From assembly GCA_963663235.2 (NCBI GenBank), contig CAXXNO010000002.1, positions 1-64,000 of the forward strand: 64,000 bases of DNA, given 5' to 3'. The notes beneath the pieces were generated by a model, which worked only from the letters and a program-made list of their open reading frames with translations, did no database searches and was not told the DNA's origin. This document shows, one piece after another, positions 8,316 to 53,417 of this stretch. The position numbers and the translations under genes were made by a program. Position 1 is the first letter of the stretch; each line of letters begins with the position of its first letter. The DNA comes from Dehalococcoidia bacterium. Lineage in GTDB: Bacteria; Chloroflexota; Dehalococcoidia; Bin125.

Positions 8316-9452
8316 CTAGGACGACCGCTGGTAGAGCTTGCCCTCGGTCTTGATCGCGGGCGCGATGACCATCTCCGCCTGGTGCATCTCGCGGATATTG
8401 CGCGCGCCGACCATCCCCATGCAGGCGCGCAACGCGCCCACCAGGTTTTCCGTCCCGTCGGTCCGGGCGGTGGGACCGAGCAGCAGCCGGTCCAGGCTGG
8501 TATGCCGTCCGACCTGGACCCGCACGCCGCGCGGCAACTCAGCGTGCGCGGTGGCCATGCCCCAGTGATAGCCGCGTCCCGGAGCTTCCTCCGTGCCGGC
8601 GAACGGTGAACCAAGCATCACCGCGTCCGCCCCCGCCGCAAATGACTTGCAGAGGTCGCCGCCCGTGCGGATGCCGCCGTCGGTGATGATCGGGACGTAA
8701 CGGCCAGTGTCCGCGTAGAACTTGTCCCGCGCGGCCGCGCAGTCGATGGTGGCCGTGACCTGGGGCACGCCGATGCCCAGCACTTCGCGGCTGGTGCAGG
8801 CCGCGCCCGGCCCCACGCCCACCAGCAGCCCGGCGATCCCCTCCTGCAACAACTCCAGCGCACCGTTGTAAGAGACGGTATTGCCCACCAGCACCGGCAT
8901 CGACACCTGCTGCACGAGCTCGTGCAAGACCAGGCCCCGCAGCGAGTGCGAGGTGTAGCGCACGGTGGTGACGGTCGATTGCACCACGAAGAAGTCTGCG
9001 CCGGCGTCGTCGCAGATGGGAGCCAGGCGCTTGGTGCTGGCCGGCGTGGCGGCGACGGCGACAGGGACGCCCGCCTGCTTGATCTCCTGGATCCGCTGGA
9101 CCACCAGGTCGTCCCGGATGGGAGCCTCATATGCCTTCTGCAGCGTGGCCGTTGCGGTCTCGGTATCGACGGCGGCGACGCGCTCAAAGATCTCGTCGGG
9201 CGCATCGAAGCGGCACTGCAGCCCTTCCAAATTGAAGACGGCCAGCCCGCCGCGCCGGCCGATCTCGATGGCCATGCGCGAGTCGACGACGGCGTCCATC
9301 GCAGAGGCGAGAATCGGGATCGCGAAGCTGTGGCCGCCGAGATCCAGATGCACATCGGCCATGGCGGGATTGATAGTGGCCGCGCCGGGCACGATGGCGA
9401 CGTCGTCGAAGCCGTAGGCCTGGCGCAGGTCCTTCAAGTAGGGGACCGACAT
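8316..9452 (-). CDS. GuaB3-family IMP dehydrogenase-related protein
   Basis: '[11 protein letters not shown]', 'ASAMDAV', catalytic '[12 protein letters not shown]', '[11 protein letters not shown]'; no CBS pair; 378 aa. Confidence 0.9.
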
Positions 9453-9495
9453 TTCGGGCTCTCCTCGATCGCTGCAGCCGTGCGGCCGTCCGCTT

Positions 9496-9526
9496 AAACA
9501 GAACCGCGCGGCAACGGGCCGCGCGG
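9496..9526 (-). terminator. Intrinsic terminator inside the guaB3 leader
   Basis: Minus strand CCGCGCGGC-CCGTT-GCCGCGCGG (9-bp GC stem) followed by TTCTGTTT, ~45 nt before the guaB3 start. Confidence 0.75.
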
Positions 9527-9641
9527 GCGCTCGGAGACTACCAGGCTCCAGTTACAGGTCCACGTGGGCGCATCACTCAACCATCTCGGGGTACCGTTGC
9601 TCCATTAGTGGTGGCGTCAGTGGGCCAATCCTTCGTGGATT
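9496..9641 (-). ncRNA. Candidate cis-regulatory RNA (riboswitch/attenuator) upstream of guaB3
   Basis: Long non-coding leader between promoter and terminator with several hairpins and an alternative GCAACGG/CCGUUGC pairing. Confidence 0.55.
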
Positions 9642-9647
9642 GGGGGA

Positions 9648-9676
9648 AGTATACGGCTCCCACCCGATGCGAGCAA
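9648..9676 (-). promoter_or_regulatory. Sigma70-type promoter for the guaB3 leader
   Basis: TTGCTC (9676-9671), 17 bp, TATACT (9653-9648). Confidence 0.7.
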
Positions 9677-9737
9677 AGTGACCGCTTATCAGAGCCGCCG
9701 ACTCGGGCCGGAGCGCCGAGGCCCGTATACTGCGGCT

Positions 9738-10595
9738 GTGGCGGGCACGCTCTACGTCGTCGCGACGCCGATCGGGAATCTGGAAGATCTCACGGCGCGC
9801 GCAGCCCGCGTCCTCGCGGACGTGGCGCTGATCGCGGCCGAGAATCGCCAGACGGCCGCCAAGCTATTACGTCACCTCGCGATCTCGACGCCCTGCGTTA
9901 CTTACAACGACCGCAACAAAGCGCGCAGCACCCCACGCCTCCTGGCACAGCTCAAAGCCGACGGCTCGATCGCGCTGATCAGCGAGGCCGGCACGCCCGG
10001 GATCTCGGACCCGGGCCAGGACCTAGTCGCGGCGGCGATCGAGGTCGGGGCGCAGGTCGTGCCCATCCCAGGGGCGTCGGCGCCCGCGACCCTGCTCTCG
10101 GTCGCGGGGGCGCGAACGCGCACGGCCCGCCTGGTCGGCTTTCTCCCGCGCCGAACGGGAGAGCGGCGGCGCCTGCTGGCGGACGTCGGTAAGCGCGGCG
10201 AGGCCACGCTCGCCTTCGAGTCACCCCACCGCCTGCGGGAATCGCTGGCCGACATCGCCGCCGTTCTGCCGCGGGCCCACCTGGTGGTGGGGCGGGAACT
10301 CACCAAGCTCTATGAGGAGGTCTGGCGCGGGTCGCCGGAGGAGGCGCAGCGCCATTTCGAGCGGCCCCGCGGAGAGTTCTCGCTGCTGATCCTGCCAGCG
10401 CCGCCAGAGCCGGTCCGCTGGCCGGACGACGCCGTACGCGCCGCGCTGCAGGGGGAACGCGCGGCGGGCGCACGTCGGGCCCCGGCGGCGGCGGCCGTGG
10501 CGGCCCGATCGGGGCGCACCCGTCGCGAGGTCTACGCGCTGTGGCCGACCGATGAGGCCGCCCCGCCGGACGGGCCGGCCGTCCACGGACAATAA
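9738..10595 (+). CDS. rsmI: 16S rRNA (cytidine1402-2'-O)-methyltransferase
   Basis: 'GTLYVVATPIGNLEDLT', 'SEAGTPGISDPG', 'FESPHRL', 'RELTKLYEE'. Confidence 0.93.
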   Translation: MAGTLYVVATPIGNLEDLTARAARVLADVALIAAENRQTAAKLLRHLAISTPCVTYNDRNKARSTPRLLAQLKADGSIALISEAGTPGISDPGQDLVAAAIEVGAQVVPIPGASAPATLLSVAGARTRTARLVGFLPRRTGERRRLLADVGKRGEATLAFESPHRLRESLADIAAVLPRAHLVVGRELTKLYEEVWRGSPEEAQRHFERPRGEFSLLILPAPPEPVRWPDDAVRAALQGERAAGARRAPAAAAVAARSGRTRREVYALWPTDEAAPPDGPAVHGQ

Positions 10596-51038: not shown

Positions 51039-53417
51039 CTGGACAGCAAGACGCTCGAATACCTGGAGTTCCCCAAGATCACCGCCCGCCTGGCGGAGCA
51101 CTGCACCTCGCCCATGGGCCGCGAACTGGCTGGGACCCTGGTCCCGAGCGACGACGTGGACGAAGTGCTGCGGCGACAGCGCCTAACCGCCGAGGGCAAG
51201 CGTCTGCGACGGATCAAGCCGAGCTTCGCGCTCGGCGGCGCGGCGGACATCACACCGCTGGCGCACTCGGCGGCGCGCGGTGCTCAACTGCCGGCGAGCG
51301 AGTTGCTGGAGGCGCTCTCCTTCCTCCGCAGCGCCCGGCACACCCGCCACCACATCATTCCGCTGGCCGATCAGGTCCCGGCCCTGGCGGCCGATGCGCA
51401 GCGCATCGGCGAGTTCGGCCCCCTGATCGCCGAGATCGATCGCGCCCTCAGCCCCCGCGGTGAGATCCTGGACACGGCCAGCCCCACTTTGTCCGTGCTG
51501 CGCCGCGACGTGCAGGTCGCCCATGACCGGCTGCTGGACCGCGTCCAGCGCATCCTCAACCAGACGCTCGCCCGCGGCTACGCGCAGGAATCGATCATCA
51601 CGGAGCGCGACGGTCGTTATGTAATCCCGATCAAGGTCGACTCGCGCAGCCACGTCCCCGGGGTCGTGCACGATCTCTCCTCCAGCGGGGCGACGGCGTT
51701 CGTCGAGCCCTTGGGCGCGGTCGAGCTGGGGAACGGCTGGCGCGAAGCGCGCCTGCTGGAAGAGCGGGAAGTGGAGCGCGTGCTGCGCCGGCTGAGCGGC
51801 CTGCTGGGGGCAGAGGCCGGCGCGATCGTGGCCTCGGTGCGGGCGCTGGCCGAGATCGACCTGACCCTGGCCAAAGCGGACTTCGCCGCCGCCATCGATG
51901 CTCCCCTGCCGGCGGAAGGGGAGAACCAGGCGTGGATCGTCGAGGCGCCGAGCGAGCTGCGGCTGCAATCGGCCCGCCATCCGCTGCTGACCGGGGAAGT
52001 GGTGCCCATCTCTCTCGTGGCCGGGGGCGAGCAGCGCGGCGTGCTGATCACCGGCCCCAACACGGGCGGCAAGACCGTGGCGCTGAAGAGCGTGGGCCTG
52101 CTCACGCTCATGGCCCAAGCCGGGCTGCCGGTCCCCGCCGAAGCGGGCACGCAGATCCCGGTCTACGCCACGATCGCCGCCGACATCGGCGACGAGCAGA
52201 GCATCGAGCAGTCGCTCTCGACGTTCTCCTCGCACATGCGCAACATCATCCGCATCCTAGAAGCCGCGGGCCCGCAGAGCCTGGTGCTGCTGGACGAGCT
52301 GGGAGCAGGCACGGACCCCAGTGAAGGCAGCGCCCTGGGCCGCGCCATCCTCAAGCAACTGCTCGGCCTGGGCGCCACCTTCGTCGCGACCACGCACCAC
52401 GGGGAGCTGAAGATCTTTGCGCACGAGACGCCGGGGCTGATCAACGCCTCGGTCGAGTTCGACCACGAGACGCTGGCCCCCACCTACCGGCTCATGCTGG
52501 GCCTGCCCGGTCGCAGTAACGCGATCGCCATCGCGGAGCGCCTGGGGCTGCCCGCCCCCGTGCTCGCCGACGCGCGGGCCGCCTACACGCCCGGCGAGCA
52601 GAGCATGGAGCGCCTGCTGGAGGAGTTGCAGCGTGATCGCAGCGCCACGGGCGACGCCCGCAGCGCAGAGGAGTTCGCGCGCCACGAGGCCGAATCGATC
52701 CGCGACCAACTCCGGCAGCGCCTGGATCGCCTGGACGCCGAACGGGACGAAGTGCTGGCCAAGACGCAGATGGAGATGGAGCGCCAGCTCGGCGCCCTGC
52801 GCCAGTCCATCCGCGCGGCCGAGAAGCGGCTGGCGTCCGGGCGCAAAGCGGAAATCGAACAGGCGCGCGAGCGCGCGGCGGGAGCGCAGCGCCGCCTGGA
52901 GCGGGTGCGGCGCGAGCGCCGCCAGCCGCAGTCGCATCGGCGTCCGACGCCGCAGGAGCGCCTCGATCCCGCCTCGATCCGCCCCGGCGCGGTCGTGCAC
53001 CTGCGTGGCCTGGAACAGCCCGGCGAGGCGCTCACCGCCGTCGATGCGGACGGCATGCTGGCCGTGCAGCTGGGATCATTGCGGACGCGCGTGCGCAGCG
53101 ATCAGGTGGAGCGGCTGGGACAGCGCGAGGAACGCCGCGGCGACGTGCGCTACGCCGTGAGTATCGCCGACCCCGGCTCGCGCATCGAGGTCCGCGGCCA
53201 GACCTTGGACGAAGCGCTCCCGACGGTGGAGCGCTTCCTGGACCAAGCCTTCCGCGCGGGGCTGTCACGGGTCGAGGTCGTGCACGGGAAAGGCACCGGC
53301 ACGCTGCGCGAGGCCGTGCGCCAACTGCTGGGATCCCATCCGCTGGTCGGACGCTACACGCCGGCGAGCCAGGAAGAGGGCGGTGAAGGCGTGACCATCG
53401 TGCACTTGGCGCTGTAG
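51039..53417 (+). CDS. mutS2: Endonuclease MutS2 (Smr domain; ribosome-collision factor RqcU type)
   Basis: 'KTLEYLEF', 'HDLSSSGATAFVEP', 'TGPNTGGKT', 'DEQSIEQSLSTFSSH', 'LDELGAGTDP', Smr 'VHGKGTG'; probable CTG start. Confidence 0.93.
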   Translation: MDSKTLEYLEFPKITARLAEHCTSPMGRELAGTLVPSDDVDEVLRRQRLTAEGKRLRRIKPSFALGGAADITPLAHSAARGAQLPASELLEALSFLRSARHTRHHIIPLADQVPALAADAQRIGEFGPLIAEIDRALSPRGEILDTASPTLSVLRRDVQVAHDRLLDRVQRILNQTLARGYAQESIITERDGRYVIPIKVDSRSHVPGVVHDLSSSGATAFVEPLGAVELGNGWREARLLEEREVERVLRRLSGLLGAEAGAIVASVRALAEIDLTLAKADFAAAIDAPLPAEGENQAWIVEAPSELRLQSARHPLLTGEVVPISLVAGGEQRGVLITGPNTGGKTVALKSVGLLTLMAQAGLPVPAEAGTQIPVYATIAADIGDEQSIEQSLSTFSSHMRNIIRILEAAGPQSLVLLDELGAGTDPSEGSALGRAILKQLLGLGATFVATTHHGELKIFAHETPGLINASVEFDHETLAPTYRLMLGLPGRSNAIAIAERLGLPAPVLADARAAYTPGEQSMERLLEELQRDRSATGDARSAEEFARHEAESIRDQLRQRLDRLDAERDEVLAKTQMEMERQLGALRQSIRAAEKRLASGRKAEIEQARERAAGAQRRLERVRRERRQPQSHRRPTPQERLDPASIRPGAVVHLRGLEQPGEALTAVDADGMLAVQLGSLRTRVRSDQVERLGQREERRGDVRYAVSIADPGSRIEVRGQTLDEALPTVERFLDQAFRAGLSRVEVVHGKGTGTLREAVRQLLGSHPLVGRYTPASQEEGGEGVTIVHLAL

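Follow-up and report, generated by a model that had tools for sequence, protein, structure and literature searches.

The leader of guaB3 in a Dehalococcoidia bacterium (GTDB lineage Bacteria; Chloroflexota; Dehalococcoidia; Bin125) carries a GC-rich hairpin with a U-rich tail that is real and under selection, specific to one bacterial family and essentially single-copy per genome. It lies in the window analyzed here, a stretch of 64,000 nucleotides (nt) that spans positions 1 to 64,000 of the forward strand of contig CAXXNO010000002.1 (assembly GCA_963663235.2). The hairpin is very probably a conserved cis-acting terminator or attenuator. Our preferred but tentative reading of its function is that the guaB3 leader is a lineage-specific transcription attenuator coupled to translation, of the pyrBI and pyrE type, found in one family of high-GC Dehalococcoidia. 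An earlier note on this DNA had proposed the same leader as a candidate undescribed riboswitch or attenuator. The parts that carry the argument are listed here, with the leader open reading frames (ORFs) named A and B.

8316 to 9452, minus strand: guaB3, the gene behind the leader, encoding 378 amino acids with the IMP dehydrogenase (IMPDH) catalytic domain (PF00478) and without the CBS/Bateman pair.
9504 to 9526, minus strand: the terminator hairpin, composed of CCGCGCGGC (9526-9518), the loop CCGUU (9517-9513) and GCCGCGCGG (9512-9504), with nine G-C pairs.
9494 to 9503, minus strand: the U-rich tail UUCUGUUUAA, from the terminator scan.
9494 to 9580, minus strand: leader ORF A, from TTG 9580 over 28 codons through the hairpin to a TAA (9496-9494) in the U-rich tail, with a Shine-Dalgarno energy of -3.1 kcal/mol.
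9538 to 9576, minus strand: leader ORF B, from GTG 9576 (or the in-frame ATG 9573) over 12 (11) codons to TAG 9540-9538, with a Shine-Dalgarno energy of -4.6 (-4.9) kcal/mol.

The hairpin has the build of an intrinsic terminator, a GC-rich stem-loop followed by a U-rich tract, with nine G-C pairs, a 5-nt loop and the tail UUCUGUUU. It is the sole terminator-like site found by the terminator scan (9526-9504, tail TTCTGTTTAA; one site compared with 0.3 +/- 0.7 in shuffled sequences), and folded alone it has a free energy of -20.1 kcal/mol. These values, together with its family-wide occurrence and covariation, bear out the 9-bp GC terminator with a U-rich tail that the earlier note had described. 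Because the upstream neighbor, rsmI, is divergent, a hairpin on the minus strand cannot terminate an upstream gene and belongs to the guaB3 leader. In one lineage of genus g8 (L015/L064), the gap between the hairpin and the guaB3 start is only about 25 nt, so that guaB3 must be transcribed through the hairpin. Genera g3, g7, g8 and g9 have kept tails of the form UUGCGUU(U)AA.

The same style of terminator occurs elsewhere in the genome. A genome-wide scan for a perfect 8-bp GC-rich stem with at least five T in the next 10 nt returned 61 sites, 35 of them no more than 120 nt downstream of where a same-strand open frame of 120 codons or longer ends. The tails at these sites are interrupted U tracts, for example UUUGUUCGUG and UCGUUUGUCG, that resemble the tail of the leader. 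The proportion of sites after open frames is supportive of a terminator style and is not proof of it, since open frames are frequent in GC-rich DNA. Closely similar hairpins (GCGCGGC...GCCGCGC with a U-rich tail) also stand directly after the stop codons of unrelated genes, on contig 11 at 51604-51651 (plus strand) and in the other genomes G113 and G131. A repeat family or REP-like element was rejected as the origin of the hairpin: the genome has 12 copies of its core palindrome, in keeping with a GC content of 68%, and by our reading of the flanks none of the other 11 copies is followed by a comparable T-rich run.

The earlier note had made its proposal depend on conservation and covariation in relatives, and for the hairpin both were found. 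We searched 41 related genomes with the GuaB3 protein, obtained a match in all of them and took 30 loci. The hairpin GCGCGGC-N5-GCCGCGC, or a variant of it that differs by one pair, is present in all 25 loci of the family (ten genera, with GuaB3 proteins 68-79% identical) and in none of the five loci of other families. It lies 54-236 nt before the aligned guaB3 start in the 25 family loci. The distance from hairpin to guaB3 is 25-150 nt across the family overall, and only about 25-60 nt separate the hairpin from the real start in genera with an extended GuaB3 N-terminus. Of the 65 family genomes, 54 carry the exact 21-nt form AGCGCGGC-N5-GCCGCGCT, 53 of them at one place and one at two; a reversed control pattern occurs in two genomes among the 65. 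The 11 genomes without the exact form are the present one, eight of genera g2, g3 and g5 that carry outer-pair variants, and two of g7, one of which is 66% complete. Among the newly taken places, 38 of 39 have the GuaB3 N-terminal motif no more than 420 nt downstream, the exception being the extra copy in the two-copy genome.

In an alignment column count over 53 distinct sequences, 99.6% of the 477 cells of the 9-bp helix are paired. Both sides have changed at three of the nine pairs (GC/CG/AU, AU/CG/GC and GC/AU), and the covariation score of 0.190 compares with 0.052 +/- 0.010 in shuffles, none of which reached it (0/500); slid controls scored no higher than 0.032. In the same sequences the six inner pairs vary hardly or not at all, with one G-U pair and one mismatch.

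A covariance model of the hairpin and its tail (R1) scored 38.9 bits (E = 8.8e-8) at 9488-9532 in this genome and exceeded 50 bits in the family only (6/6 sampled genomes). We inspected the five best remaining matches: none stands beside guaB3, and three follow stop codons as ordinary terminators do. In a metagenome scan, the g1/g5-type hairpin pattern was present in at least 121 stretches, and no GuaB3 motif lay downstream in any of the 80 loci taken, so that the scan yielded no leader closer to that of this genome. Nor are leader terminators a general property of guaB3, as a terminator-like hairpin lay within 320 nt upstream in only nine of 80 other loci (with a slice offset in a few short loci).

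According to the tentative reading given above, RNA polymerase would start at the TATACT promoter and, about 125 nt downstream, would meet the strong intrinsic terminator, where transcription would end unless folding of the hairpin is prevented. A ribosome on the leader ORF, moving close behind the polymerase, would cover or melt the 5′ arm and permit read-through into guaB3, while a lagging or absent ribosome would let the hairpin form. Read-through into guaB3 would track how closely translation follows transcription, and the candidate signals would be nucleotide-dependent polymerase speed, ribosome availability or growth rate, and (p)ppGpp. Control of the hairpin by the ribosome is itself a possibility that we put forward with reserve. 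Terminator activity, translation of the ORFs and the coupling between them are what we infer, and for this genome the mechanism is drawn mainly from its relatives, its own leader-ORF ribosome-binding sites being weak. The element, which is absent from Rfam, is best filed as a variant of translation-coupled attenuation and not as a new riboswitch class.

The leader ORFs are what recurs besides the hairpin. Coupling of this kind is an established principle: according to PMC4824070, ribosomes repress a terminator that follows a stop codon by only a few bases, folding becomes possible with 10-15 nt of free RNA, and pyrBI has its terminator within a 135-bp leader ORF. In the window, both ORFs end no more than about 15 nt from the stem or beyond it: ORF A crosses the hairpin and ORF B, whose GTG lies within the motif TGAGTGAT common to genus g5, has its TAG 11 nt before the first stem base. 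The relatives are alike in this respect. One reading frame in g7 and g9 ends, as ORF A does, at a TAA 9 nt past the hairpin core. Where the leader ORF ends differs between genera. Its stop sits in the hairpin tail in g8 and g9 and in the tail of a further hairpin of similar build in g6 and g10; the ORF of g3 and of one g10 genome overlaps the start of guaB3, and that of g4 ends 15 nt before it; in g5 the ORF is fused in frame with guaB3, and in many g7 leaders it stops at a TGA directly before the stem.

Most genera have a purine-rich, Shine-Dalgarno-like tract followed after 4-10 nt by a GTG, and in two of them a canonical GGAGG stands 4-5 nt before the GTG (GGAGG-CGAGA-GTG in g8 and GGAGG-CRCA-GTG in g10). 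We counted leaders that have a start codon with a Shine-Dalgarno energy of -5.5 kcal/mol or lower and a frame open to the stem, using 23 representative leaders that were drawn from ten genera and are not independent. Such a start is present in 20 of the 23, compared with 7.3 in dinucleotide shuffles; at a threshold of -7 the count is 11 compared with 3.1, and at -9 it is six compared with 1.2. The frame itself contains two stops in 364 codons, both of them a TGA right before the stem, and the other two frames contain 10 and three stops in 346 codons each, although the GTGA motif by its own sequence raises the +1 count.

A second terminator-like hairpin, ACCGGCCGC-N5-GCGGCCGGT, lies 80-110 nt past the first in genera g6 and g10 (L009, L011-L014), where the tandem hairpins are contained within one long leader ORF whose stop codon sits in the U-rich tail of the second. 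The design also recurs in two guaB3 leaders of other Dehalococcoidia whose sequences are unrelated. In L084 and L099, from another Dehalococcoidia lineage, a 42-codon ORF (515-643) begins 5 nt downstream of a -10-like element, passes through two terminator-like hairpins and has its stop 9 nt ahead of the guaB3 ATG, within the Shine-Dalgarno sequence. In L028, from another family of the class, a 54-codon ORF extends from 174 to 12 nt before guaB3 behind a strong ribosome-binding site, GGGAGG (-11.5 kcal/mol), crosses a terminator-like hairpin (TGCCTGCC-ACAC-GGCAGGCA followed by UUUGUGCUUUGUU) and ends in the guaB3 Shine-Dalgarno sequence.

Several observations weigh against control by a ribosome. 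This genome is one of the three leaders among the 23 without a qualifying ribosome-binding site (L011 is another), its best values being -4.9 to -3.1 kcal/mol. The distance from the GTG to the hairpin is 52 nt here compared with 51 nt in g4, g6 and g10, so that the frame opened by this GTG closes ahead of the stem. Genera also differ in their frame relative to the hairpin (f0 in g4, g5, g6, g7, g8 and g10; f1 in g2, g3 and g9), indels in g7 are not multiples of three, and the positions that vary in g7 are not third codon positions but lie in the loop of a small conserved hairpin around the GTG. Substitutions are flat over the codon positions (14/13/10 and 7/8/7), so that the peptide is not selected and translation is not directly shown by them; open frames, moreover, are common at 68% GC. 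A G-rich pause tract before the hairpin is absent, with C exceeding G in five genera and a C/G ratio of 0.58-2.11 across 18 leaders (0.88 in this genome), which leaves a GTP-sensing version without sequence support. The near-invariance of the six inner stem pairs is left unexplained by the ribosome model, although an all-GC stem under strong selection may be evolutionarily frozen, as swaps from G:C to C:G need mismatched intermediates. A conserved small protein was rejected as the purpose of the ORF, given the lack of third-position bias and a frame that differs between genera in relation to the hairpin.

The riboswitch reading of the earlier note concerns one further segment.

9594 to 9600, minus strand: GCAACGG, the proposed anti-terminator strand, complement of 9517-9511 and not counted as a working part.

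That reading, in which an aptamer in the leader binds a purine, a nucleotide or a second messenger and toggles the RNA between terminator and anti-terminator, we now consider improbable. Some observations favor it. The leader is long, contains a terminator and, as the earlier note had supposed, falls outside the known riboswitch families, purine, ZTP, ykkC/PRPP/ppGpp and SAM-I among them: at gathering score, Rfam recognized only two tRNAs in the 64-kb window, and at E values up to 10 it returned only two chance-level matches between 9350 and 9850, to a microRNA and a small nucleolar RNA, with nothing to support the SAM-I-like echo seen in the letters. No match to the purine or ZTP riboswitch (RF00167 and RF01750) exists in the whole 92%-complete assembly, a genome whose only IMPDH found is without the nucleotide-sensing Bateman domain; upstream of guaB3 in 20 other loci, no known riboswitch reached the gathering score. 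The aptamer of known riboswitches is conserved more than the expression platform. Here the hairpin is far better conserved than the putative aptamer, the reverse of that pattern, which counts against a riboswitch. An alignment of the 25 leaders from ten genera has 33% mean column identity, the 100-130 nt upstream of the hairpin are unalignable, and the invariant columns are confined to the stem, plus one in the tail. The consensus fold with three leaders of the nearest genus keeps the terminator and shares little else, with 17 of the 34 pairs predicted outside the terminator broken in one sequence, mostly the window's own by our reading of the alignment. The leader as a whole folds no better than shuffled sequences (z = -0.48; 63/200 shuffles equal it), and only about 70 nt precede the hairpin in g7. 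As for the anti-terminator, the complementarity of GCAACGG and CCGUUGC exists as the earlier note had stated, but it is at chance level, is not conserved and is not favored energetically: when the upstream leader was shuffled with its dinucleotides preserved, 60 of 500 sequences contained a similar 7-nt complement, and a fold forced to hold the pairing has -58.6 kcal/mol compared with a minimum of -71.7, that is, 13 kcal/mol worse. We also paired each leader with its own and with foreign hairpin loops, using 21 lineage/loop representatives. The own loop was better in only 10 of 21, with a mean gain of 0.3 kcal/mol and no anti-terminator signal, although this genome's own loop does pair at -11.4 kcal/mol compared with a foreign mean of -7.8, a value equaled by one of 17 foreign loops. 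Pairing between the loop and the conserved GUGA motif, as a kissing contact or an anti-terminator, fits some genera by eye and was rejected by the same test (10/21). The case shows that a long leader, a terminator and the absence of an Rfam match need not mean a riboswitch; a ligand-sensing one is disfavored here by the lack of a conserved aptamer-like domain, a shared fold and a supported anti-terminator.

Two other explanations keep the hairpin at the center and replace the ribosome. A protein or small RNA might read the invariant GC stem, either as RNA or as a DNA operator of the 7-N5-7 kind that acts as a roadblock, and so set the termination or transcription of guaB3. Such a sequence-specific binder is a serious rival to the ribosome model, though on balance we find it unlikely. 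The inner pairs are (near-)invariant in 53 sequences from ten genera, while the 5-nt loop is free in sequence and fixed in length, a degree of constancy that base pairing alone does not demand. On the other hand, the outer-pair changes at three positions (about five lineage events by our own reading) all keep complementarity; one G-U pair is also present; the T-rich tail is one-sided; the site lies some 75-125 nt downstream of the -10 element and not at the promoter; and with one site per genome there is no regulon. The all-GC stem may also simply be frozen by selection. About equally unlikely is an unregulated structural element, whether a leaky terminator or pause hairpin that fixes the level of guaB3, a hairpin for mRNA processing or stability, or a terminator that ends some short transcript of its own. 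In its favor, sequence conservation is confined to the hairpin, and no alternative structure is conserved. Against it stand the ribosome-binding sites with ORFs to the stem, which are enriched about threefold over shuffles, and the recurrence of the design in unrelated leaders. An essential single-copy gene behind a terminator of -20 kcal/mol without relief would probably be costly, and one g8 lineage leaves no room for a separate promoter.

Translation-coupled attenuation, the reading that we tentatively retain, has known counterparts. In E. coli pyrBI (pyrL), as proposed here, an intrinsic terminator in a nucleotide-biosynthesis leader stands inside or at the end of a short translated ORF, where a ribosome that follows closely keeps the hairpin from forming; in most relatives, and for ORF A of the window, the putative leader ORF likewise extends across the hairpin and has its stop in the tail or past it. 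pyrBI has U-rich pause sites; the present leader has no run of the sensed nucleotide before the hairpin, no G-rich tract and a weak ribosome-binding site. The gene controlled also differs, being a purine (GMP-branch) gene of Chloroflexota without sequence relation to pyrBI. In the E. coli pyrE attenuator behind rph, the upstream ORF stops a few nt short of the terminator, whose stem is masked by the ribosome as it terminates. ORF B, which stops 11 nt ahead of the stem, and the numerous g7 leaders that have a TGA right before the hairpin are similar in arrangement, except that a 12-codon leader ORF takes the place of a full-length gene. The 11-nt gap of ORF B borders on the 10-15 nt that, according to PMC4824070, permit full folding.

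The guanine/purine riboswitch (RF00167) and other switches of the purine pathway share with this element a 5′ leader with a terminator before a purine gene, and differ from it in that no Rfam match and no conserved aptamer are present here. The trp, his and leu attenuators share the succession of a short leader ORF and an intrinsic terminator. Here, unlike in those systems, there are no regulatory codon runs, the peptide is not conserved, no pairing of anti-terminator and anti-anti-terminator is conserved, and the ORF overlaps the terminator instead of ending more than 20 nt before it. In yeast IMD2, which encodes an IMPDH, transcription terminates prematurely in the leader and RNA polymerase itself senses GTP; that system is eukaryotic and works by Nrd1-Nab3 termination and start-site choice, so that the analogy is functional only. 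A literature search found no leader attenuator or riboswitch of this kind for guaB, guaB3 or another gua gene, most subscription journals being outside its scope.

A broader generalization, which we regard as speculative and rather unlikely, is that Dehalococcoidia with a Bateman-less GuaB3 as their only IMPDH repeatedly evolved pyrBI-like guaB3 attenuators, in at least three unrelated leader designs, in which translation of a leader ORF runs across one or two intrinsic terminators and the distance from the polymerase to the first ribosome sets the flux through the GMP branch. That distance would depend on polymerase speed as influenced by guanine nucleotides or (p)ppGpp, or on translational capacity. 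If true, this would be a purine counterpart of UTP-sensitive attenuation, which our literature search did not find described for a bacterial gua gene. If the hairpin of the present family is ribosome-coupled, a mechanism of enterobacterial pyrimidine genes would be extended to a purine gene of an uncultured, environmentally widespread lineage.

The identity of the gene is secure. The product of 8316-9452 scores 406.6 bits with the GuaB3 equivalog model TIGR01304 (cut-off 342.1), in agreement with the target that the earlier note had named. Canonical IMPDH enzymes are said to sense nucleotides through the CBS pair. No canonical, CBS-containing IMPDH scored above the TIGR01302 cut-off in the 92%-complete assembly; the best match was guaB3 itself, the other seven mostly span only the CBS region, and GuaB3 appears to be the sole IMPDH catalytic domain of this assembly. 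In the parts of PMC13273366 that concern the enzyme, GuaB3 is the essential IMPDH of a cyanobacterium, is without CBS domains and is regulated differently from canonical GuaB. For a GuaB3 without the CBS pair, a family-wide attenuator offers a testable, transcriptional answer to the control of entry into GTP synthesis. In genera g3, g7, g8 and g9 (L007, L015-L025), GuaB3 has an N-terminal extension of about 35 amino acids (MTTLT...) that is missing in this genome, and in those genera the start of the extension follows the hairpin by 25-60 nt.

A purine regulon sharing the element was considered and rejected. The guaA gene (contig 6, 115139-116806, minus strand) has no comparable leader and no terminator in the leader that it has, and the other matches of the covariance model do not stand beside guaB3. 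The open frame of guaA begins about 50 codons ahead of the conserved IVILDFGSQ start, and its sole good ribosome-binding site is at TTG 116806.

The remaining features of the leader and its surroundings are as follows.

9459 to 9466, minus strand: the guaB3 Shine-Dalgarno sequence GAGGAGAG, ending 6 nt before the ATG at 9452.
9533 to 9549, minus strand: small stem GGAG-CCUGGUAGU-CUCC directly 5′ of the terminator, its loop containing the TAG of ORF B (read from the sequence and folded).
9625 to 9643, minus strand: 5′-proximal hairpin CCAAUCC-ACGAA-GGAUUGG (read from the sequence and folded).
9648 to 9676, minus strand: promoter-like pair TTGCTC (9676-9671) and TATACT (9653-9648) with a 17-nt spacer, read from the sequence.
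9738 to 10595, plus strand: rsmI, the divergent neighbor, coding for the 16S rRNA C1402 2′-O-methyltransferase (TP_methylase; TIGR00096, 191.6 bits); context outside the element.

The guaB3-rsmI spacer, a divergent intergenic region, measures 285 nt when counted from GTG 9738. The rsmI open frame opens at GTG 9678 (window 9678-10595, plus strand), and GTG 9738 is likely the real start, judging from the conserved N-terminus (MAGTLYVVATPIGN) and a Pfam domain that begins at residue 24. A divergent rsmI lies upstream in 22 of 29 relatives' loci. Some loops of the hairpin (GCCCGU here, window 9513-9520; CGUCA and UCAC in g4 and g8) have what we take to be a resemblance to 16S rRNA around C1402, the target of RsmI, presumably by coincidence; the loops of g7 and g10 are without it, and the hairpin persists where rsmI is not adjacent.

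The leader length of about 190 nt given in the earlier note holds from the probable transcription start near 9641 to the ATG at 9452, and both the 5′ hairpin (9643-9625) and the GGAG...CUCC stem (9549-9533) that it listed are present. The 5′ hairpin may serve as a 5′ stabilizer; the nearest genus has a different hairpin (GCGCAC...GUGCGC) in its place, and by the leader alignment the GGAG/CUCC stem is not conserved among the relatives. RNA sequencing (two RNA runs) yielded only short contig fragments, within 9060-9357 of the guaB3 coding region and within 9745-9784.

The promoter claim stands in part. The pair TTGCTC-17-TATACT is present, but a consensus promoter scan did not call it, its hexamers matching at eight of 12 positions by our own reading against a scan threshold of nine of 12. 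TATACT is found again at the equivalent place in g5, g4, g6, g10 and a single g2 locus; of these, g5, the genus nearest to this one, also has TTGCTC. The g7 loci (L016-L061) have a conserved block, TGTTYGGTYGTTTACG, about 45 nt upstream of the guaB3 -10 element TATCTT; at 21 nt from the -10 it is too far for a standard -35, and it may be a regulator site or part of a divergent promoter.

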